Counted from the stretch's first letter, positions 4,831 to 27,095 are shown. The stretch is DNA of 32,000 nt from Candidatus Saccharimonadota bacterium (GCA_025349965.1 CP075337.1:660001-692000), one strand, 5' to 3'. The notes: generated from the sequence alone by a model not told the origin. Numbers and translations are program-made.

Positions 4831-5055
4831 AGGTTTTCGACACTTTGCGCTGATATAACTTCATCAGTGGGTCAAAACCTCGCCTCGATGCCAATAGTTC
4901 TATGACTACTGTATCGATGCTTGCTGTAAGAACGCTTAAAATTGACGTTCTATAGTGAAAACTTGTGATTTTCACCAATTACTCGTTAAGTCTACCTAAT
5001 CTTCTCTAGTTAACTGGATCCTGTAACGGACGGAGTTAACTTTGAAGATAAGGAC

Positions 5056-8350
<3,295 letters not shown>

Positions 8351-8804: not shown

Positions 8805-9233
8805 CTACTCCCCAAGAACAGTAAGTATATAGTCTGTATATTTTCCGGCGGGAATAACACCAGCTTCAATGTCCTGCCGAGACACCCAAGTCACCTCTTT
8901 CACCTCTACTGGATCTGCCGTAATAACAACGTCTTCTGCCAGTACGCCCGTATACATCAATATAATGCGGCTATCAAACCGAAGAAACTCACGGCGAACA
9001 ACATCAGTATACTCACCTTTTGAGAGGCCGAGTTCTTCAAAGAGTTCCCGCTCCAATGTATCGTCTGGTTGCTCCAACCCTTCAACATGACCACCAGGCA
9101 ACCCAAAACCACCACGTGGCAGTACAGTCATGAGTGCCTTGTCCCCCGTTTCATTCAAAAGAATGATCTTTGACGAGACCGGGTGACGTGGATAGGTTAA
9201 TTGTTTTACGGTTCTGCGGATTTTTTGATACAT
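8805..9233 (-). CDS. NUDIX hydrolase
   Basis: 142-aa ORF with a complete Nudix box, GGHVEGLEQPDDTLERELFEELGL (Gx5Ex7REUxEExGU). Confidence 0.85.
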   Translation of the reverse strand: MYQKIRRTVKQLTYPRHPVSSKIILLNETGDKALMTVLPRGGFGLPGGHVEGLEQPDDTLERELFEELGLSKGEYTDVVRREFLRFDSRIILMYTGVLAEDVVITADPVEVKEVTWVSRQDIEAGVIPAGKYTDYILTVLGE

Positions 9234-17542: not shown

Positions 17543-19159
17543 ATGTTCAAGAAAATCGTGTCACGAATCTCGTTCAGCCCCGCTTTGGTGGCTCAGCTTG
17601 GCTTTTATGCGAAACGGCTTCGCAAGGAACAAGCAACACGACGGCTTGGTCTTATTTTCGTTGCGCTTGCGCTTGTTGTTCAGAGCTTTGTCGTCTTTCA
17701 GGCACCCGAACCAGCGAACGCCGCACACCCAAGCGATATGATTCCAGGGGGGCTCGGCTGGAGCAACCCAAGTCTTAAAAAATTCCTTGACGCGTACGAT
17801 ACAAACTGGGGGCACACCCAGCATGCCGCTCATCAGTTCGGCATTACACGTGCTGAAATTGCCGCTGCGAAGTACGGCACGTTCAAGGTGGGTACTGCTG
17901 TAGGTTGGGGTTGGGATACTCAAATGCCTAACTCACGCCTCATGAAGGTATATGACTACAATGGTAAGTACGTCCGCAATCTATACGGACGACAGATGAA
18001 CCAATACTACCCAATGAACAAAGATATTCCTGCATTTATTGGACATTCAAAAATACGCGGCTGGTTCGCGATTGCCGTAGAATGCGGAAATATCGTTACT
18101 AAAGATTTCGTAAGCTATCCCGAGCCGAAACCTGCAAAAATCGTTGCTTCAAAAAGCGCTGTTAACGTTACCCAAGGCAAGGTAAACGCTACTAAAGTTT
18201 CCGCCAAAGAAAAAGATACACTCACCTACACTGTTAGCCTCACGAACACGGGCGGAAAAACCACTTCCGTCACTCCGGTTGATAACATCAAGAGCGTGCT
18301 TCAGTACGCAACCATCACCGATGCTGGAGGTGGAACACTTAATAAGACAAAAGGCACCCTCACCTGGCCAGCAGTGACACTTACTCCGGGCAAGTCAGTA
18401 ACAAAAACCTACTCGGTCAAGATGATTAATAATCTCGGCAATAGCAAGACTAACTGTACGATGATTAATACCTTCTTCGACAAGAAGGTAACGACGCCAG
18501 TTGGGTGCTACACGCCAGAAACTCCGAAACCACCTGAGCCTGAACCAAAGCCAGAAACACCTGAAGTAAATGTTAGTGTTGCAAAAAATGCAACAAACAC
18601 TTCACAGGGCAATACTGATGCAACAAAAACAACAGCTCAAGCAAGTGACCGTATTACTTTCACGCTAACAGCAACAAACTCAGGCAACACGGCAACTGAT
18701 TTCACATTCAAGGATGATCTCACCGATACACTTGAATACTCAACGCTTATAGACAATGGTGGCGGCAGCTTTGACGCAACAAGCAAAACGCTCAGTTGGC
18801 CGACTATCAAGCTCGCAGCGGGTGCGAAAGAAGTGCGTAGTTTCACTATCCAGGTACTTTCATCAATACCGGCAACACCAGTAGGTGCAACCCAAGGTGC
18901 ATCCTATAACTGTAAGATGGAAAATAGCTTTAGTGCTGACGATGATACAGACGCTTCAACTATCATAAAAGTTAACTGCCCTACTCAAAAAGTAGTTGTA
19001 GAGCAAACAGTAAGCGAATTACCGAAGACCGGTGCTGGTACAAATATGATCTTTGCAGGAATTGTTCTTTCACTCGCCGCATTCTTCTACTTCCGCTCAC
19101 GACAACTCGGTAGCGAAGTGCGACTTGTCCGCCGAAATATCAACGAAGGAGTATTCTAA
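17543..19159 (+). CDS. Cell-surface protein, paralogue 1: extended signal peptide, unassigned N-domain, two DUF11-like repeats, LPKTG sorting signal
   Basis: 538-aa ORF. A 35-aa charged N-extension, a TM segment and an ANA/AH cleavage-like site come first. Two repeats follow of the type TxxxAKxxDxLTYTxxxTNxGG...GTLxWP. A PEPEPKPETPE linker is present. The C-terminus is LPKTGAG, a hydrophobic segment and a basic tail. Confidence 0.8.
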   Translation: MFKKIVSRISFSPALVAQLGFYAKRLRKEQATRRLGLIFVALALVVQSFVVFQAPEPANAAHPSDMIPGGLGWSNPSLKKFLDAYDTNWGHTQHAAHQFGITRAEIAAAKYGTFKVGTAVGWGWDTQMPNSRLMKVYDYNGKYVRNLYGRQMNQYYPMNKDIPAFIGHSKIRGWFAIAVECGNIVTKDFVSYPEPKPAKIVASKSAVNVTQGKVNATKVSAKEKDTLTYTVSLTNTGGKTTSVTPVDNIKSVLQYATITDAGGGTLNKTKGTLTWPAVTLTPGKSVTKTYSVKMINNLGNSKTNCTMINTFFDKKVTTPVGCYTPETPKPPEPEPKPETPEVNVSVAKNATNTSQGNTDATKTTAQASDRITFTLTATNSGNTATDFTFKDDLTDTLEYSTLIDNGGGSFDATSKTLSWPTIKLAAGAKEVRSFTIQVLSSIPATPVGATQGASYNCKMENSFSADDDTDASTIIKVNCPTQKVVVEQTVSELPKTGAGTNMIFAGIVLSLAAFFYFRSRQLGSEVRLVRRNINEGVF

Positions 19160-19752
19160 TGAATAGCGAACAATTTCACGCCAATAACCCTGAGGTAACC
19201 GCTAACAAGGAGCCTAACCTTGAAGCTGAAAAGCAATACGAAAAAGTCGGCGAAGCGTATGAGCAGGCTGCCGAGAAGGCAGGTATTGAAAATGGCGAAC
19301 AGGCTGCCGAGAAAGCAAAAGTAGAGGCTCTCGAGCAAGCTGTTAGTGTTGAGCGTGGTAGTGCCGAAAAGAAACGCAAAGAACCGAGCAGTAGCCCCGC
19401 ACAGCGCCGTCACGGAGTTGTAAGCAAGAAAGAGCGCGAAGCAAGCTACAAGCAGCACCTGAAGCAAATTCGAACCGAGATGCCCGCCTCACAGCGCGCC
19501 TTCAGCAAGTTCATCCACTCCCCTGCGGTAGAAAAAGTAAGCGAGGTAGCCGGAGCAACCATTGCACGGCCAAACTCTATTCTTGCAGGTGCAATCGTCG
19601 CCTTTTTTGCGGTACTTGCAGTGTACCTTATTGCAAAACACTACGGCTACCCACTCTCGGGCTTTGAAACTATCGGCGCGTTCATTGCGGGCTGGATAAT
19701 CGGAGCACTCTACGACTTCTTCCGCGTCATGATTACCGGTAAGCGTAGTTAA
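19159..19752 (+). CDS. Hypothetical membrane protein (K/E/A-rich N-terminal half, two C-terminal TM helices), translationally coupled to paralogue 1
   Basis: 197-aa ORF. Its ATG overlaps the upstream TAA (TAATG at 19157-19161). The C-terminal segments ILAGAIVAFFAVLAVYLIA and TIGAFIAGWIIGALYDFF are hydrophobic. Confidence 0.65.
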   Translation: MNSEQFHANNPEVTANKEPNLEAEKQYEKVGEAYEQAAEKAGIENGEQAAEKAKVEALEQAVSVERGSAEKKRKEPSSSPAQRRHGVVSKKEREASYKQHLKQIRTEMPASQRAFSKFIHSPAVEKVSEVAGATIARPNSILAGAIVAFFAVLAVYLIAKHYGYPLSGFETIGAFIAGWIIGALYDFFRVMITGKRS

Positions 19753-19777
19753 TTACCTATCAACAGGAGCCTCGGGC

Positions 19778-21334
19778 ATGTTTAAGAAAATTGTTTCAAG
19801 GATTTCATTTAGCCCCTCGTTAGTGGCTCAGTTAAGCTTCTATGCGAAACGCCTTCGTAAAGAACAGGCTACGCGCCGCTTAGGGCTTATTTTCGTTGCC
19901 CTCGCCCTTGTTGTGCAAAGTCTCGTAGTATTCCAGGCACCCGAGCCAGCAAATGCAGCCCACACCAGCAATATGATTGAGGGTGGCCTTGGCTGGAGCA
20001 GCCCCGATCTTGGAAGGTACCTCCGCGCATACGACTCCAACTCTGGATACACACGTAATGCTACGAGCTATTTTGGCATTACACGCGCCGAATTAGCGGC
20101 GGCAAAGTACGGAAGCTTCTCAATAGATTCAAAGGTAAGTTGGGGCTGGGACTATCCAATGCCAACCTCTAGAGCCGTTGCAATTACAAATGATCAAGGC
20201 CAAAAGGTACGTACGCTCTACGGAAGGTACATGAAGGATAATGCCTCAAACCCACCAACAGTAACTGGATTTATCGGACATTCAAGCCGTATCGGATGGT
20301 TTGCCATATCCACCGCCTGCGGAAATATCACTACCGTTAACTTCCCAGAGCCACCGCCACCGCCCCCTGCACCAGCAAAAATTGTCACGACAAAGACGGC
20401 AGTTAATACATCGCAATCAAATATTGACGCCACGAAAGCAACTGCGAAGGAAAATGACCTCCTCACCTACACTATCTCCGCGAAAAACGAAGGTGGTACA
20501 GCAAAGCAGGTCGAGCTTGTTGATAAGATTGGTGACGTACTTCGCTTCGCTACACTCACCGCAGCGAATGGTGGCACGCTTGACTCAAAAAAAGGTACGC
20601 TCAGCTGGCCAGATGTCACGATAGGTCCCGGACAAACAGTGAAGCGACAATACACCGTGAAAATGAATAGCTCTCTCATATCTCCTGATAGCTGCTCCAT
20701 GACAAATACCTTCACGGATAAAAAAGTGACGGTTGCTGTTGGCTGCTCTACCCCACCGGCGCAGATCGTCGCTAAAAAGGAAGCCCTTAATGTAAGTCAG
20801 GGCAACATAGATGCGACCACAACAGTTGCACGAGCAAAAGATACGATTAGCTTTAGTTTATCAGCCGTAAATAATGGCGGAACAGCAAAAGAAGTTGCTT
20901 TTGATGATTACATTGGCGACGTACTCGAATATTCCACCCTTGTTAATACTGGTGGTGGGCAGTATAACGAAAAAACTAAAATGCTCAGTTGGCCAAAAGT
21001 TCTCCTTAAGCCTGGAGCAAAGGAAGTGCGCACATTCACAATTGAAATGCTCGCAACCATACCTGCAAGCTCAAAGAATGTCAGTGAAACTTCATCATAT
21101 AACTGCAAGCTCGAGAATACCTTCCTTGGGTCAGATACTGTTATCGATGTAGATTGCCCTGCTCCAAAGGTTATCGTAGAAAGCACCGTGACAGAGCTCC
21201 CGAAGACAGGCGCAGGCGCTAATATGGCATTTGCCGCACTCGTATTCGCTACGGCAACGTTCTTCTACTTTAGGTCTCGACAGCTCTCAACAGAAGTCCG
21301 CCTCGTTCGCCGTAATCTTCACGGCAATATCTAG
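19778..21334 (+). CDS. Cell-surface protein, paralogue 2: same architecture as 17543..19159, LPKTG sorting signal
   Basis: 518-aa ORF. The first 62 aa are 59/62 identical to paralogue 1. It has a PPPPPP linker, two DUF11-like repeats, and LPKTGAG plus a TM segment plus the RSRQLSTEVRLVRRN tail. Confidence 0.8.
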   Translation: MFKKIVSRISFSPSLVAQLSFYAKRLRKEQATRRLGLIFVALALVVQSLVVFQAPEPANAAHTSNMIEGGLGWSSPDLGRYLRAYDSNSGYTRNATSYFGITRAELAAAKYGSFSIDSKVSWGWDYPMPTSRAVAITNDQGQKVRTLYGRYMKDNASNPPTVTGFIGHSSRIGWFAISTACGNITTVNFPEPPPPPPAPAKIVTTKTAVNTSQSNIDATKATAKENDLLTYTISAKNEGGTAKQVELVDKIGDVLRFATLTAANGGTLDSKKGTLSWPDVTIGPGQTVKRQYTVKMNSSLISPDSCSMTNTFTDKKVTVAVGCSTPPAQIVAKKEALNVSQGNIDATTTVARAKDTISFSLSAVNNGGTAKEVAFDDYIGDVLEYSTLVNTGGGQYNEKTKMLSWPKVLLKPGAKEVRTFTIEMLATIPASSKNVSETSSYNCKLENTFLGSDTVIDVDCPAPKVIVESTVTELPKTGAGANMAFAALVFATATFFYFRSRQLSTEVRLVRRNLHGNI

Positions 21335-21355
21335 AAACAACAAGTGTCAATTGGG

Positions 21356-24286
21356 CTAGCGAAGCTTAATTGATACCCCATCATCTTCACCCGCGCCACC
21401 ACGGATGCTTAATTCTTCTTTCTGAACCTTTACGGGGGCTACTGGTTGCACAGACTGCGGGTGTGGGTGTGGCTGTTGCTGTTGCTGTACAGGAACTCCG
21501 CCAAGCTGAGTAGTCGGACCAAACGCGGGGTTAGGCTCGGCGCTTGGCCGCGCCGGGACCGAAGATGCATTCTGTGGAGCAGTCATCTGCCCTGCACTTT
21601 GATTATTAGACGAAGGCTGAGGTGCTTGATTTATAATTTGCTGACGTTTTGCGAGCCACTCGTCAAGGAATGACGGTTTGGTAGACATCCCAGAGCCTGC
21701 CGGCATACGCCCAGACGCCGCAGGAGCACCTCCTGGAGCGTTTGCAACACCTGGACCACCTTGCAGTGCTCCGTTCGGACCACCCGCCTTAAACGCAGCC
21801 ATACGCTCATCCTGGGCCTTTTTAAGCGCCGCCATCTTCGCCTTCTTTGCTTCATCGCCAGCGCTCATACGCTTAAAGAACTCCTGCTCTACAACTGCGC
21901 GCTGTTTGCCGTATTTTGTTGCAGAAAGATTCTTGAGCGCATCACGCAATTGCGGGTTTGATTTTCCAAGTGGTGGAATAAGCGACATACTGAATGAGGC
22001 TGACGGCACATCCTGAATCATCACAGAGGCAATCGTTTGGTAGTTTGGAAGACGCGTTAAGTCTTCTGCGTCAAAGGTTGGCGCGAACTTTTTCACCAAA
22101 ATATCTGCATCAGTGATACCAATGCGACCGCTAATAATTGTGCCGATGTTACCAAGAATCGCTTCACGAATCTGATCAGTGAGCTGTGTCATGAACTGAT
22201 TGGCAAGAATAAGGCTAAGGCGATACTTACGAGCCTCAGAAAGAATCGTGGCAAATGAGTCGGTGGCAAAGTTCTGGAACTCATCCACGTAAAGGCTGAA
22301 GTCTTGACGCTGATCCTCTGGCATGTCGGCGCGACCCATCGCGGCAGCGTTAAACTTCATCACAAAGATCATACCGAGGAGCTGCGAGTTCAACTCACCT
22401 ACCCTACCCTTAGAAAGGTTAACGAGGAGAATCTTCTTGTTATCCATAATGTCGCGAAGATCAAAACCGCTCTTTGTCTGACCAATGATATTTCGCATCA
22501 TGTCATTTGCAAGGAACGCACCGAACTTGCTGGCAAACCACCCGAGCATCTCACCCTTGGCAGACTCGGTTGTTTGCGCCATCTCCTTGTGCCAAAAATC
22601 GAGCACCGTCTGAGTTCGAACATGCTTAATCTTTTCATCAGCGAAGGCCTGGTCGATAAATACTTGTTGAACGTCAAGGAATGATGAACCGTTAGGGTCC
22701 GACATGACTGTCAGCGCGGCGTTGCGGAACCATGACTCAAAGCGCGGACCAATAATACCCGTGTGGCCTGGGTCGTAGAGGCGGTACAGCATTGCAATTG
22801 TTTCTTGAATAATGAAATCTCGCTGGTCTTGGTTGTCAAACTCAAACAGGTTGAGACCAATTGGCATCTCCATGTCGCCAGGGCTGAAGTAAATAACATC
22901 CTCAACACGCTCTTTTGGCACCATACCAAGGAGCTCTTCAGCAGAGTCACCGTGCGGGTCAATGAAAGCAAAGCCACGGCCATCCATCATATCTTGGTAG
23001 GCGAGGTTTTCAAGAAGTTTTGACTTACCAGTACCAGTCTGTCCAATGATGTACGCGTGGCGACGACGGTCTTTTGCGCCGAGCCTAATTGGCTTCTTGG
23101 TGCCACGGAATTCGTTATAGCCCAAGAGGAAGCCGTCATCCATCACTTGCGTTGGACCATCAACCTGACGCGTTGCTTGGCGCTGCACCTGTGAAGTTGG
23201 AATAGAGTTCTGAGATGGGAGATGGAAAATCGTTGCAAGCTCAATAGTATTGAGAATGTTAGTCCGCACTTCCTGCGGGAAGAAGCGGAAGATATAGGCC
23301 GTGACAAACTCATTCATATCTTTTGCGACCGCAAACTTGAAGCCGTTATTCTGTGGAGAGTCAAACAGCGCAAAAGCAGATACGACATTACTCATCAAGG
23401 CTTGAGAACGTGCCGAAGTGTTGGAAGAAGCCACTACACGAATCAGCGTTTCATAGCCTGGGTAGCGCGTTTTGTCTTCAATTGCATCAACTACCGTCTG
23501 CTCAACTGAGCTAAGCTGCTTGTCTTCAGACTTAACCTCTTGAGACTCTGGCGGCTTCCAAAGTGCCTCCATAACACCCGTCATAATAGACTGGGGTCCA
23601 GATTTTTTACCCTTGTCCTTCTTCATGCCTGAAGCAATGTCGGCTGCCACCTTAGACCAACCTGAATCAGCCGGACGAAGCAGAATTTGAATCCCCACGC
23701 CATCTTCACGTGTTGCGCCAGAGAGCGCATTAAGAAGTGCGCGGCTTACATCACGCTTTGTCTCCTGGTAAGTTGCAATCGGATAGCCAAATTCTTTCTT
23801 AAGCGTAAACTCACCACCAATAGTGGCGCTCATTTTTCCGGCTGGATTAAAGATGTTGCGTTCGCTCACCTCTTCAAGACGGGCCGCTGGATATGCCGCC
23901 GCTACCGCCTGGCGAACAACATCAACCAATGAAACAGGTACCACGGCATAGTAGTGCACTAGCCCTTCATGCGCCACAATCTCAAATGACATATGTCGCT
24001 GGCCATACACCTTACTCTTAAAGCCTTTGGTGGCAGTGCTGGCAATGATGTTGTACATTACCTGCGCCTGACTGAGTACCTCTTCAGTGACGTCGCGCTC
24101 ATCACGGCCACCACCCTCAATATCAGAACTAATTGGCGGGATATGAATATAGAGTGGTACCATCTTGAGGCCACGTTCATAATTTTTTGCCTCGCGAATA
24201 ACACGACGATACTGGAACAAAGCAAACACTGCCACGCCAGCAACGACGAGCACAATGATTAGAACTGTCACAAGGAAGGCTACCAC
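21356..24286 (-). CDS. Type IV coupling protein-like P-loop ATPase (TrwB/TraD/VirD4 family) with an N-terminal TM anchor, an unassigned N-domain and a P/Q-rich tail
   Basis: 976-aa ORF with a GTG start. HAYIIGQTGTGKSKLLENLAYQDMMDGRGFAFIDPHGD aligns by eye with the remembered TrwB segment HLLVNGATGTGKSVLLRELAY...VIVDPNGD. It has a Walker B motif (FSLYVDEFQNF) and a RKYRLSLILANQ sensor-like motif. The first roughly 400 aa have no motif I recognise. The last roughly 150 aa are low complexity (QQQQQPHPHPQ). Confidence 0.8.
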   Translation of the reverse strand: MVAFLVTVLIIVLVVAGVAVFALFQYRRVIREAKNYERGLKMVPLYIHIPPISSDIEGGGRDERDVTEEVLSQAQVMYNIIASTATKGFKSKVYGQRHMSFEIVAHEGLVHYYAVVPVSLVDVVRQAVAAAYPAARLEEVSERNIFNPAGKMSATIGGEFTLKKEFGYPIATYQETKRDVSRALLNALSGATREDGVGIQILLRPADSGWSKVAADIASGMKKDKGKKSGPQSIMTGVMEALWKPPESQEVKSEDKQLSSVEQTVVDAIEDKTRYPGYETLIRVVASSNTSARSQALMSNVVSAFALFDSPQNNGFKFAVAKDMNEFVTAYIFRFFPQEVRTNILNTIELATIFHLPSQNSIPTSQVQRQATRQVDGPTQVMDDGFLLGYNEFRGTKKPIRLGAKDRRRHAYIIGQTGTGKSKLLENLAYQDMMDGRGFAFIDPHGDSAEELLGMVPKERVEDVIYFSPGDMEMPIGLNLFEFDNQDQRDFIIQETIAMLYRLYDPGHTGIIGPRFESWFRNAALTVMSDPNGSSFLDVQQVFIDQAFADEKIKHVRTQTVLDFWHKEMAQTTESAKGEMLGWFASKFGAFLANDMMRNIIGQTKSGFDLRDIMDNKKILLVNLSKGRVGELNSQLLGMIFVMKFNAAAMGRADMPEDQRQDFSLYVDEFQNFATDSFATILSEARKYRLSLILANQFMTQLTDQIREAILGNIGTIISGRIGITDADILVKKFAPTFDAEDLTRLPNYQTIASVMIQDVPSASFSMSLIPPLGKSNPQLRDALKNLSATKYGKQRAVVEQEFFKRMSAGDEAKKAKMAALKKAQDERMAAFKAGGPNGALQGGPGVANAPGGAPAASGRMPAGSGMSTKPSFLDEWLAKRQQIINQAPQPSSNNQSAGQMTAPQNASSVPARPSAEPNPAFGPTTQLGGVPVQQQQQPHPHPQSVQPVAPVKVQKEELSIRGGAGEDDGVSIKLR

Positions 24287-24374
24287 GCTCTTTGTTTTCC
24301 TATTCCCTTACACACCTTTTGTCTTATTATGCGCCTTTTGGCTACTTTTGGCGACCCCTTTTCACCTATCTTCG

Positions 24375-24803
24375 CTACTCTGTATCTACTCCGACGGTTT
24401 TCCCGTACCGCTTCTGGAGGTAACTCCGCTGTAATTCACTCACCTGAGCGCTACGAGCGTAGGGATCATCTCCGGTGCGCTGGATGATTTCTTTTGCCTT
24501 GTCCACCCACTCTTTCTCGATAAGATCCTCGTCAGCTGCCACCATTGGCGAGCCAACGGTTGGTTGTGTCACCGGGACAGCCTGCGGAACTTGAGGCGCT
24601 ACCGGCTGCTGTGTCTGATACTGTGGCGCCCCTGAGTTCTGTGCGCCGCCTGCCGTATCCGCTCGCTGTTCGTACGCCTCCTGTCCTCTGCCAACTTGCA
24701 CTTCAATTGGCGGGAGACTTGGGATATTTTCAGGTCCAATAGTTGGCTGCACCGGCAGTTGCTCGGCGCCCGTTGAAACAGATTGGTGGCTCTCAGGTTG
24801 CAT
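24375..24803 (-). CDS. Hypothetical protein, P/Q-rich N-terminal half and a conserved-looking C-terminal helix region
   Basis: 142-aa ORF on the same strand, immediately upstream of the ATPase. No recognisable motif; it is called only on ORF length, context and strand coherence. Confidence 0.5.
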   Translation of the reverse strand: MQPESHQSVSTGAEQLPVQPTIGPENIPSLPPIEVQVGRGQEAYEQRADTAGGAQNSGAPQYQTQQPVAPQVPQAVPVTQPTVGSPMVAADEDLIEKEWVDKAKEIIQRTGDDPYARSAQVSELQRSYLQKRYGKTVGVDTE

Positions 24804-24832
24804 AGCTTAAATTATAGCATATACCGCTTATG

Positions 24833-25219
24833 CTAACGTATCCTTTTACTTACATATATACAAGCAACGACCTCGAAGAGCGTCACAAGAATAAATTCAC
24901 GAAGCCCTATTGGGCTGACAGACTGGAGGCCAATCAACATCACTGGCGCGGCCGCCAGCGGCACGGCGAAGTGGTACGCTCGCCGAAACGTCAGCGGACG
25001 AAGCGGCACGCTCCGAGGTACGCCAGAAAGAACAACCACCATGAGACGCCTGAAGCCATACAAAGCAGCGCTGATTACCCCCACGGACGCAATGTACGCT
25101 GACACGAAAAGCAGCAACAAGCCAAATGGCCCCGCATTCGCCGGTGAGGTAAGGAACAAAAGCAGGAGCAATACAAATATGCTCACAACAGTTGAAATGG
25201 TAACGACACGAATAAACAT
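24833..25219 (-). CDS. Hypothetical small integral membrane protein (about 4 TM)
   Basis: 128-aa ORF with four hydrophobic stretches separated by short basic loops. It is the first gene of the minus-strand run ending in the ATPase. The overlapping plus-strand ORF 24830..25102 is highly basic and looks like an antisense artefact. Confidence 0.55.
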   Translation of the reverse strand: MFIRVVTISTVVSIFVLLLLLFLTSPANAGPFGLLLLFVSAYIASVGVISAALYGFRRLMVVVLSGVPRSVPLRPLTFRRAYHFAVPLAAAPVMLIGLQSVSPIGLREFILVTLFEVVACIYVSKRIR

Positions 25220-26008
25220 TATTATTACTGTAGCATAGTGCCTATGGTTTAATTGTTTTTAGTATGCAAAAGCACCCCTAAAATAAGGGGTGCTCGGGAG
25301 CAGAAAAAATGACTATCTTGGAGTCCTAGCGACATCATTATAATGCCACGGTATCGAACATGCGCCGCTAAAAAATTACTATTAGGCGTGTGAACCGAAT
25401 GGCGAATGAGCCGCTAGAGACTTTTGACCGCTCCGGTAAAAACCGGGGCAACCGTTTTTGCTCGAGGTCTTATTCCACACACTTGCGTCAAGTAGTCTAC
25501 CAATATACAGGGGTTCGGACCCTATTTTCAGATACCTTTTGGACAGGTTCTGGTGATATACAAGGATTTACTTGACACAAGCATGGTACTAAAAACCAAC
25601 GCTTTTGGCGGAGCATCGGCGACGGCGTCTACTTATAGGGATACGTCCCACGCTGTAAATATTCTAAAAGAAGATTTATGGTATGAACGTTTGTTCTCTT
25701 GATGCTTTCTAAAACTGACGAGTGTTGTCACAAAATCCCATAAGGTGCGTTACCTTTAAAAGGCAATAAGAAGGAAGCTGTGCAGTACTACACTCAGGTA
25801 TACGGCATGCGTATACAGTTTAGTAAGCGGGTGTATTTACCAGGATGGTACATACGAGAGAGATTTATCTCTACAGGAGGCGTCACCGACTTTTCCGTCA
25901 AAATAGTCTTGTGAGTATATGTTCTTTTCTTTGAACGTTGCCGAATTGTTAAGGTGTTTTTTGTGGTGGCTTTTTTGAATGTTTTTGTTTTTCTCAAAGC
26001 TTACCTTT

Positions 26009-26037
26009 ACTTTAGCATAAGCATATCATTGGGTCAA
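26009..26037 (-). promoter_or_regulatory. Candidate promoter (TTGACC-17-TAAAGT) pointing into the 0.9-kb ORF-free region
   Basis: Minus strand reads ttgacc caatgatatgcttatgc taaagt. It is the best -35/-10 pair I could find on either strand of 25220-26141. Confidence 0.3.
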
Positions 26038-26141
26038 TAGTTTTGTTGTATTTGATGCGTGTATTTTATACAACACATTTTTTACATCTGTTCTGAATGA
26101 TTACGTTGATATATATACAACGTTGTATAAACTGTCGTTTA

Positions 26142-27095
26142 CTACGGCGTACAAATGGAATACGAGTCGTCAGGCGCACCACTCCAAGCGCATCCAGCAC
26201 TTGATCCGTCCCTAAATGGATAGAGGGTCTCACCTTCGGTTACCATAACTCCATCAACATCCACAGAAGAGTCCGACAGGCCAATTTGCATTCTTGGTGC
26301 GCTCGTTCCATTCCAATTAGTCGGTGTCGTCACTGTATGTGATATGCGCGTCCATGCCCCACCTCTGACGTTTCGATTCTGAATGATAGCCATAGCCGTA
26401 CCCGATTGGTTCGGGAAGGTCACCGTTAGACGATAGTTTACATAGACATCAGACCCATAGTTATGGCGAACATACATACTGATGGTATATTTCTTATTAG
26501 GCTTAACGAGGATATAGTCAACAGAATGCCCGCCCAGTGATATACCACCGCTACCAGAGGGAACAGTAATTCTTGCGTACGATGGGCCGAACATACCTCC
26601 GTTCGTCATAAACTGACCAGAGGCTGTACCGGTCGTAGCAATAACACCTGTCAATGCCATATTAGGGTTCTTGAAGTAGTTCACGATCATTGACTGTCCG
26701 TCAACACCATGACCGACACACGTACCTTGCTTCGGCAAGCTATTGCCGCTCTCTATATACCACGCCTCCCCCTTCAGAGATGCTGTTACGCAGAATGTAT
26801 TTGTAATAGGATTACCGTCATACTGTATAGCAGACTCACTACTTGGGAGTGTAATCCCATTAAGATCCCAAGGGTACTTGCCGCTTTCGCTGCGATACTT
26901 CATAACCGCAGCTGCCACACCGCGCGCATCGGTCTTTGCGGTCTCCTGACGACTGTCTTTAATAATCGCGTTATATGCAACCGTCACAATGCCAGCCAAA
27001 ATACCTATAACAACAATCACAACAACAAGTTCAACGATTGTAAATCCATGTATACGTATATTTTTCTGTAGCATATTAGATACCCGTTTATTCAT
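26142..27095 (-). CDS. Type IV pilin-like protein (prepilin N-terminal cleavage/methylation domain) with a large C-terminal beta-rich domain
   Basis: 317-aa ORF. The leader MNKRVSNMLQKNIRIHG is followed by FTIVELVVVIVVIGILAGI (G/F cleavage site, Glu at +5). Cys pairs occur at about 102/126 and 302/315. The start could instead be the ATG at 27074. Confidence 0.85.
   Translation of the reverse strand: MNKRVSNMLQKNIRIHGFTIVELVVVIVVIGILAGIVTVAYNAIIKDSRQETAKTDARGVAAAVMKYRSESGKYPWDLNGITLPSSESAIQYDGNPITNTFCVTASLKGEAWYIESGNSLPKQGTCVGHGVDGQSMIVNYFKNPNMALTGVIATTGTASGQFMTNGGMFGPSYARITVPSGSGGISLGGHSVDYILVKPNKKYTISMYVRHNYGSDVYVNYRLTVTFPNQSGTAMAIIQNRNVRGGAWTRISHTVTTPTNWNGTSAPRMQIGLSDSSVDVDGVMVTEGETLYPFRDGSSAGCAWSGAPDDSYSICTP

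Follow-up and report, generated by a model that had tools for sequence, protein, structure and literature searches.

The six genes at positions 17,543-25,219 of the window analysed here, a 32,000-nucleotide stretch of chromosome from Candidatus Saccharibacteria bacterium TM7i (GCA_025349965.1, CP075337.1:660001-692000), are best read as two juxtaposed transcription units of the Saccharimonadia core chromosome that lie tail to tail, and as neither a mobile element nor one apparatus; we put the probability of this reading at roughly 55%. Unit A encodes a four-transmembrane protein (TM128), a small proline/glutamine (P/Q)-rich protein (PQ142) and an ATPase related to type IV coupling proteins (T4CPs), and is plausibly a motor serving a type IV secretion system (T4SS). 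Unit B encodes two paralogous surface proteins (S1 and S2, collectively S) and the membrane protein M197, and is plausibly a dispensable adhesin operon. To live on their hosts, Saccharibacteria depend on a T4SS-like machine that appears to lack the coupling ATPase by which substrates are normally selected and fed in. TM7i, to which the ATPase open reading frame (ORF) assigns the window with 100% protein identity, is an ultrasmall epibiont of Leucobacter derived from cicada, and the paper describing it holds no data on the six genes.

Two observations carry the separation of the units. The first comes from published transposon-insertion sequencing (Tn-seq) of the related Southlakia epibionticum ML1 (Wang et al. 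2023, Cell, Table S1). The genes SEML1_0140-0144 of that organism correspond to those of the window by gene order, gene lengths and annotation, and the essentiality data are those of ML1, not of TM7i. The initial annotation had suggested a single host-interaction or macromolecule-transfer apparatus; set against it, the ML1 data split the region (Table 1). The orthologue of the ATPase falls in class I, the group of only 61 genes that are essential already at T0 and that includes gyrB, primase and RpoD, and the PQ142 orthologue is likewise essential, whereas S and M197 are non-essential (Wang et al. 2023). The ML1 block is flanked by a comM-like gene, with gyrB, gyrA, PAP2 and 16S coming after it, and is absent from the main-text discussion of that paper (Wang et al. 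2023). It differs from the window in having one S gene where TM7i has two.

Table 1. Features of the window and, for the six genes, the matching ML1 genes with their published Tn-seq calls at T0/T1/T2 (NE, non-essential; ES, essential; GD, growth defect).
Feature	Position	Strand	Description	ML1 gene	Tn-seq call (insertions)
S1	17543-19159	+	538 aa, LPKTG surface protein	SEML1_0144 (the one S gene, DUF11), 1608 bp	NE
M197	19159-19752	+	197 aa, membrane partner of S	SEML1_0143, 582 bp	NE
S2	19778-21334	+	518 aa, S1 paralogue between M197 and ATPase	as S1	as S1
ATPase	21356-24286	-	976 aa, T4CP-type NTPase	SEML1_0142 (annotated as a protein with a TraM recognition domain), 3060 bp	ES/ES/ES (114 input, then 11/11/9)
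PQ142	24375-24803	-	142 aa, P/Q-rich small partner	SEML1_0141, 420 bp	GD/ES/ES (0, from 9 input sites)
TM128	24833-25219	-	128 aa, four-transmembrane protein, first gene of minus-strand run	SEML1_0140, 354 bp	NE/GD/GD
Stem-loop	21344-21376	+ (RNA)	14-bp stem, 3 G-U pairs, no U-tract; spans the convergent gap and the ATPase stop		
First non-coding block	25363-25455		upstream of TM128		
Terminator-like hairpin and T-run	25430-25458	+	end of first non-coding block		
Second non-coding block	25943-26044		upstream of TM128		
Pilin-like gene	26142-27095	-	317 aa, type IV pilin-like protein		
NUDIX ORF	8805-9233	-	142 aa, NUDIX hydrolase		
23S rRNA match	5055-8347	-	3293 nt		

The second observation concerns gene neighbourhoods, which we compared across 80 Saccharimonadia loci from a scan of species-representative genomes, 74 of them informative in that they are not cut by a contig end. 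The order infC-comM-…-TM128>PQ142>ATPase> <M197 <S gyrB>gyrA> is intact in all 74, with M197 convergent to the ATPase gene at a median gap of 15 bp, S behind it and gyrB-gyrA following. The initial annotation had staked the link between the ATPase and surface halves on their co-occurrence in relatives, and adjacent they are in 74/74 informative genomes. However, infC, comM, gyrBA and the PAP2 gene are equally conserved in position, so that the adjacency amounts to lineage-wide synteny and says little about a functional link.

It is the deeper lineages that separate the two halves. In the loci L084-L098, whose ATPase is 42-45% identical to that of TM7i, a PQ142 homologue lies directly upstream of the ATPase gene (HMM (hidden Markov model) E 4e-13 to 1e-3) and in L084 runs into its start, with gyrBA located 2 kb downstream; between the ATPase gene and gyrBA, coiled-coil proteins are encoded on the same strand, and S and M197 are absent. 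HMMs of M197, S and TM128 retrieved nothing in 18 deeper or distant loci. Judged from this distribution, the pairing of PQ142 with the ATPase is older than the adjacency of either to S and M197. Three of these loci (L084 3833-5596, L086 5755-7503, L095 5714-7387) carry, upstream of the PQ142-ATPase pair, a gene for a membrane-anchored protein of 557-587 aa that ends in SHGC(V/I)N, a motif typical of L,D-transpeptidase (YkuD) domains.

Further afield in the Candidate Phyla Radiation (CPR), homologues from Magasanik-, Kerfeld- and Parcubacteria (38-39% identical, and orthologous either to the ATPase or to a paralogue of the SEML1_0293 type) are chromosomal and lie near dnaX, and the adjacency to S and M197 is absent from the other CPR classes sampled. 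Neither the window nor the ±8 kb around the gene in these three Pfam-annotated CPR loci holds T4SS genes (VirB4 and others) or a relaxase beside the ATPase. Each homologue is tightly preceded by a gene for a protein of 183-207 aa with a disordered N-terminal half and a conserved helical C-terminal half. We considered this protein as a PQ142 homologue and rejected it at an hhalign probability of 0.3%; only the architecture is analogous. Magasanik-, Kerfeld- and Parcubacteria also share (L081 11182-11931, L082 11375-12022, L083 10698-11393) a same-strand gene that begins 0.1-0.8 kb past the DUF8128 ATPase gene on its downstream side, near dnaX, and encodes a conserved protein of 215-249 aa with the motif GVFDGxxMxGxDGKxYxVPxNYASKSKLVEGD and no Pfam match.

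The initial annotation described the ATPase as TrwB/TraD-like, and its placement in the VirD4/TrwB/TraD family holds by both sequence and fold. The protein comprises an N-terminal transmembrane helix (residues 1-25), a DUF8128 domain (~40-385), a P-loop NTPase domain of the VirD4/TrwB type (~395-800) and a tail rich in P, Q, A and G (811-976). The Walker A (GQTGTGKS, 415-422) and Walker B (LYVDEF, 665-670) motifs are complete, and G415, G418, G420, K421, D668 and E669 are invariant across 82 ATPase sequences. In Pfam the N-terminal ~350 residues correspond to DUF8128 (PF26449), while the protein scores narrowly above the cutoffs of TraG-D_C (23.7 against 22) and DUF87 (23.8 against 23.2) and below that of TrwB_AAD_bind (15.2 against 20.5). 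All NCBIfam T4CP models stay far below cutoff, TraD among them at E = 3.3e-11; the NCBIfam VirB4_CagE model gives E = 1.6e-4. More distant CPR relatives carry PF10412 and PF02534, and a profile search of the Protein Data Bank (PDB) returned DotL (1.9e-7) and TrwB (1.8e-4). The family is very large, with 21,307 clusters at 50% identity (E ≤ 1e-3).

In the public annotation of TM7i the ATPase begins 41 codons further in, at Met42 (935 aa), and so loses the transmembrane helix and the motif that follows it (24164-24286). Residue Y26 and the stretch R31-K41, directly past the N-terminal helix, are near-invariant among orthologues, and this conservation of the helix and the residues after it supports the 976-aa reading. 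The start is a GTG at 24286, with AGGA ~14 nt upstream.

An AlphaFold2 (AF2) model built from the full-length protein and 56 close orthologues reached a mean predicted local distance difference test score (pLDDT) of only 51 and was set aside. The model used covers residues 1-810 and draws on 82 sequences, including relatives only 38% identical (pLDDT 81.9; predicted template modelling score, pTM, 0.68). In it an all-alpha insert of ~115 residues, with helices at 486-601, separates Walker A from the Walker B strand. Such an insert is a likeness to T4CPs, although VirB4 too has a helical insert, so that this feature alone does not discriminate. A Foldseek search of the PDB with the model placed full-length VirB4/TrwK first (E = 1.5e-14 over ~900 columns) at a template modelling score (TM-score) of only 0.30, with a root-mean-square deviation of 16 Å, whereas TrwB (TrwBΔN70) aligned over ~420 columns at a TM-score of 0.57-0.63; HerA, DotL and Cag-beta were among the further matches. 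With VirB4/TrwK the ATPase shares a two-domain layout, an N-terminal alpha/beta domain followed by an NTPase domain, and TrwK gives the best whole-model E-values. However, the global TM-score is low, sequence profiles favour T4CP families over VirB4, and a separate bona fide VirB4 is present in the Saccharibacterial T4SS cluster.

With VirD4, TrwB of R388, TraD, DotL and Cag-beta the ATPase has in common the Walker A context RH-x-(I/V)-x-G-x-TG-x-GKS and a putative N-terminal membrane anchor, and over the NTPase domain its TM-score to TrwB is near 0.6. The long, variable C-terminal tail recalls the adaptor-binding tails of TraD and DotL. A classical T4CP anchor consists of two transmembrane helices joined by a short periplasmic loop. 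Here, by contrast, one strong helix is followed by basic residues and then by the soluble, cytoplasmic DUF8128 domain of ~350 aa in place of the second helix. The ATPase also departs from T4CPs in that its gene is chromosomal, core and far from virB4, with no relaxase nearby, that the orthologue in a related species is essential for growth, and that most curated HMM cutoffs are missed. Distant relatives that match over the full length are known from Bacillus phages (PHROG 5156) and from plasmids; one of them, carried by a 65-kb B. subtilis plasmid, lies 3 kb upstream of Tcp-like conjugation genes. These phage and plasmid proteins, labelled 'DUF87 / ATPase-like', match residues ~75-815, across both the DUF8128-like and the NTPase parts (PHROG E = 1.1e-83), but they are only 20-24% identical and reside on mobile elements. 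By homology and predicted fold, the ATPase is a chromosomal T4CP variant found Patescibacteria-wide.

The two small proteins of unit A fit the descriptions first given of them, by hydropathy and by composition. TM128 has four hydrophobic segments and was found by blastp preceding PQ142 in 69/80 loci. PQ142 consists of 24% P and Q overall, and of 32% in its first 90 aa, and combines a disordered P/Q-rich N-terminal half with a conserved helical C-terminal region of ~50 aa (DxDxIEKEWVxxAKxI…LQxDYxxKRYG); it lies directly upstream of the ATPase gene in 75 loci, at a gap of -11 to +55 bp. Three of the six genes had been said to have no recognisable family, and this holds for M197, PQ142 and TM128, which find no curated-family match in Pfam, NCBIfam, PADLOC or PHROG; they are nevertheless conserved Saccharimonadia families.

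Turning to unit B, S1 and S2 are indeed paralogues (56% identical), both with LPKTG, and Pfam and TIGR01167 support reading these presumably wall-anchored repeat proteins as sortase-type DUF11 repeat proteins. S1 comprises a long, conserved, putative signal region (1-60), an N-domain (61-195), two DUF11/DUF7927 immunoglobulin (Ig)-like repeats split by a P-rich linker, LPKTG, a transmembrane helix and a conserved tail of 21 aa. The Pfam scores exceed threshold in both paralogues (S1: DUF11 48.4, E = 1.3e-12, and DUF7927 47.6, E = 2.6e-12; S2: 44.2 and 41.2), both models are matched by 19/20 aligned family members (the two window paralogues and 18 orthologues), and the TIGR01167 LPXTG anchor model scores 18.0 on S1 against a cutoff of 15.9. 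Among 70 listed S orthologues, LPxTG is present in 57, a looser LPx[TA][GN] in 5 and no motif in 8. The repeats vary, their number differing between species, S lengths range over 259-735 aa, and S orthologues are only 27-64% identical, against 62-86% for orthologues of the ATPase.

Conservation in S is highest at its two ends, over residues 1-60 and the final ~45 (70 aligned family members), with the start consensus MFxKxVSxLxFSPALxGQLxFYAxRL…ANA and the end consensus LPxTG-helix-RSRQLxKEVRLIRRxLNxGTI. In the signal region a hydrophobic segment (32-56) is followed by A-N-A and preceded by a conserved n-region of 30 aa, which is atypical of a Sec signal peptide. The N-domain holds invariant residues including C181-G-N and has no match in Pfam or the PDB. 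The overall plan of signal region, tandem DUF11/DUF7927 repeats in species-specific number, LPxTG, hydrophobic helix and basic tail is that of LPXTG sortase substrates with DUF11 or isopeptide-type Ig repeats, the Gram-positive adhesins and pilins such as the PrgB-type T4SS adhesins. Unlike these, S has an unusually long and conserved n-region, a conserved 21-aa tail past the anchor helix, an N-domain with an invariant C-G-N motif and, always directly 3' in the same operon, a gene for a small membrane protein, with a start-stop overlap in TM7i and some relatives. The transmembrane helix and the tail ('RSRQ..EVRLIRR..N.G'; window 19040-19159 and 21215-21334) are kept even in short S versions with a degenerate LPXTG (L026, L030, L036, L050, L051, L079), so that the tail seems to do more than sortase signalling. 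Other LPXTG proteins were sought in the loci of the relatives as a test of whether the long tail is generic, and none is present there.

The N-termini of S1 and S2 agree at 58 of the first 60 residues. The first 180 nt are 77% identical, with only 42% identity at third codon positions, which rules out recent gene conversion as the cause of this likeness and points to an old duplication with the signal region under strong purifying selection. The 80 related loci hold one S gene in 68 cases, two in one (in a different order) and none in 11, in most of which S is cut off by a contig end or only a fragment is left. Since relatives nearly always have a single S gene, the S1-M197-S2 arrangement is peculiar to TM7i, and the second copy stems from a duplication that is old and confined to the TM7i lineage.

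M197 had been described as translationally coupled to S1 through TAATG. The overlap is real (TAA 19157-19159, ATG 19159-19161), a Shine-Dalgarno sequence (GAAGGAG) lies 8 nt upstream, and coupling is likely on these sequence features; among relatives, the gap between the S stop codon and the start of M197 ranges from -17 to +28 bp (72 loci). In the protein, a cytoplasmic N-region rich in E, A and K and a conserved juxtamembrane motif precede a strong hydrophobic helix (~139-160) and a weaker one (~172-192) by hydropathy; given this second segment, a C-terminal helical hairpin is more likely than the bitopic topology first assigned. None of 1047 M197 homologues has a Pfam domain, and the few that bear a taxon name are from Saccharibacteria, with one exception, a metagenome-assembled genome labelled Dongiaceae.

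We suggest, with caution, how the two units might work. The ATPase of unit A would be anchored in the membrane by its N-terminal helix, with the remainder in the cytoplasm, and would presumably be hexameric, DUF8128 standing where T4CPs have their second transmembrane helix and periplasmic loop. PQ142, and possibly also the P/Q-rich tail of the ATPase, may act as an adaptor or regulator, and the ATP-driven motor would feed a macromolecular substrate to a channel in the envelope. Unit B would supply fast-evolving DUF11 Ig-repeat adhesins with a sortase signal, together with their membrane partner M197; not required when the cells grow on their host in culture, as the ML1 Tn-seq data indicate, it probably modulates attachment or host range. 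The likeliest channel for the ATPase, acting in trans, is the essential Patescibacterial T4SS-like machine that is encoded elsewhere without a coupling protein of its own, an assignment that we make tentatively and at somewhat short of even odds. It is consistent with the ML1 T4SS (SEML1_0006-0019), which is essential and in which no coupling or relaxase proteins can be recognised (Wang et al. 2023), with the distant ATPase homologue beside Tcp-like genes, and with the monoderm MPF-FATA type of the Patescibacterial T4SS.

Several observations weigh against a T4SS link. The ATPase gene is never near virB4, and according to a T4CP census, just 148 of 5,713 Patescibacterial T4CP homologues are (Quinonero-Coronel et al. 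2025). The same census reports these homologues in 2,918/3,035 Patescibacterial genomes (96%), against VirB4 in 2,417/3,035 (80%) (Quinonero-Coronel et al. 2025). In ML1, most T4SS genes belong to class II (Wang et al. 2023), whereas the ATPase is in class I, so that its loss is harmful sooner. The census describes 'the' ML1 t4cp as non-essential (Quinonero-Coronel et al. 2025). This would fit the second T4CP-like ML1 paralogue, SEML1_0293, which is non-essential (Wang et al. 2023), rather than the essential SEML1_0142.

Several of these points favour a T4SS-independent housekeeping translocase, in which an essential membrane-anchored motor of the FtsK/HerA/VirD4 superfamily would act on nucleic acid or protein, be it imported or the cell's own, and the surface operon would be unrelated. 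The class I phenotype is shared with gyrB, primase and RpoD, the census counts exceed those of VirB4, and the gene invariably has replication genes for neighbours, gyrBA in the window and dnaX in the other CPR classes sampled. The hexameric DNA translocase HerA is among the Foldseek matches, and a recent preprint reports that another Patescibacterium takes up host RNA through T4SS-like tubes, a process for which no motor is known. We nevertheless consider this explanation unlikely, if a serious competitor. ML1 already has a canonical FtsK that is essential (Wang et al. 2023), and the closest characterised relatives of the ATPase, by sequence and by fold, are conjugative coupling proteins, with distant full-length homologues beside conjugation genes on a Bacillus plasmid. 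Moreover, the difference between 96% and 80% could stem from genome incompleteness.

The separateness of the two units can also be questioned. The adjacency is universal in Saccharimonadales, across a very short convergent gap, the termini of S on the cytoplasmic side are unusually conserved, which implies a cytoplasmic or membrane partner, and a non-essential call in one laboratory co-culture may be compatible with a shared accessory role of S and M197. The ATPase and its two small partners might then act together with S and M197, S serving for example as an adhesin of the transfer machine, as PrgB does in enterococcal T4SSs, and M197 and the cytoplasmic ends of S linking to the motor. Such an apparatus would account for a convergent arrangement that persists in 74/74 informative loci at usually <60 bp, and for the concentration of S conservation in the N-terminal 60 aa and in the LPxTG-transmembrane-'EVRLIRR' tail, which is kept even where LPXTG has decayed; furthermore, Gram-positive T4SSs depend on surface adhesins, and none was found in a survey of Patescibacterial T4SSs. 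We regard it as quite improbable all the same, in view of the opposite Tn-seq phenotypes in ML1, the loss of the adjacency in L084-L098 while PQ142-ATPase-gyrBA persists, its absence from the other CPR classes sampled, the equal synteny of neighbouring housekeeping genes, and the convergence of the units, which precludes co-transcription. Of the original proposal that a coupling-like motor and wall-anchored proteins form an apparatus, the ATPase family and the adjacency therefore stand, and the joining of the two halves into one machine is not supported.

The remnant of an integrated conjugative or mobile element, with the ATPase as a decaying coupling protein and the LPXTG proteins as cargo, is suggested by the T4CP-family annotation and by relatives on plasmids and phages, but is effectively excluded by identical position in 80 species-level loci, G+C that is even throughout the region in a composition scan of the window, the lack of boundary repeats at the region and of an integrase, relaxase or VirB4 gene, and an ATPase whose orthologues are well conserved, with invariant catalytic motifs, and essential in ML1. 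The initial annotation had likewise placed the ATPase outside any obvious conjugative element, and the fixed position of the gene in relatives bears this out. Scans of the window's ORFs with Pfam and NCBIfam revealed no integrase, relaxase, VirB4, other T4SS gene or sortase, in agreement with the initial annotation, which had also reported no pilus-assembly gene; on that point it needs amending, as a type IV pilin-like gene is present (Table 1). The essential sortase of ML1 is SEML1_0327 (Wang et al. 2023). An anti-phage defence (HerA-like) role for the ATPase was considered and rejected: PADLOC gave only generic NTPase matches (mad8 1.5e-17, HerA 1.5e-9) and none for the five neighbours, and the gene is essential in ML1.

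None of the six genes is new to the databases, since both the Tn-seq table and the T4CP census include them. Too little notice has been taken, however, of the essentiality of one of the two coupling-type paralogues of Saccharibacteria, together with a small partner. Should the ATPase be the energiser that the T4SS lacks, it would give a concrete route to what the T4SS moves, the direction of transfer being also in question; should it work without a T4SS, a new, essential motor would be doing housekeeping work across a quarter of bacterial diversity. For the host RNA uptake described in the preprint, a homologue of nucleic-acid motors would be an obvious if speculative candidate. A far-reaching version, which we consider a long shot, is that the DUF8128 coupling-type ATPase and its disordered partner are the missing motor of a Patescibacterial host-feeding machine. 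They would then be a phylum-wide, essential, chromosomal T4CP derivative that powers the transfer of host RNA, DNA or protein through a T4SS-like pilus channel and has switched from conjugative export to acquisition, with S and M197 as an accessory, host-specific docking factor in Saccharimonadales. The adhesin unit, fast-evolving, variable in repeat number and duplicated in TM7i, is a candidate determinant of host range.

All six ORFs of the initial annotation are present as it called them. In the window they are preceded by an rRNA operon, a PIG-L deacetylase gene, a divergent PAP2 gene, gyrA and gyrB, and followed by the pilin-like gene, tmRNA, a comM-type Mg-chelatase ATPase gene, infC and RNase P RNA. 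The stop codons of S2 and the ATPase are 21 bp apart, as had been reported. The accompanying statement that no terminator hairpin lies between the runs is not strictly right, since a 14-bp hairpin is found there, though without a U-tract. In a context of 101 nt it folds with a minimum free energy of -24 kcal/mol (z = -2.57), and the minus-strand version is weaker.

Upstream of the TM128 gene, an ORF-poor stretch of 920 bp contains two non-coding blocks that many Saccharimonadia loci share at 72-83% DNA identity; the first of them ends in a terminator-like hairpin and T-run. A search of this stretch against Rfam at permissive thresholds gave nothing credible. The pilin-like gene, 900 bp past the TM128 gene, encodes a fusion of a prepilin N-methylation motif with a carbohydrate-binding domain (CBM_4_9), and homologues 28-33% identical occupy the equivalent position in seven relatives (L001, L005, L006, L008, L014, L015, L064). 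Within the rRNA operon, tRNA-Ile and the 23S rRNA gene flank the NUDIX hydrolase ORF (Pfam 4.9e-12). The 23S rRNA match exceeds the 2925-position model, which implies that ~370 nt are inserted at one or more places, and it contains no long ORF.

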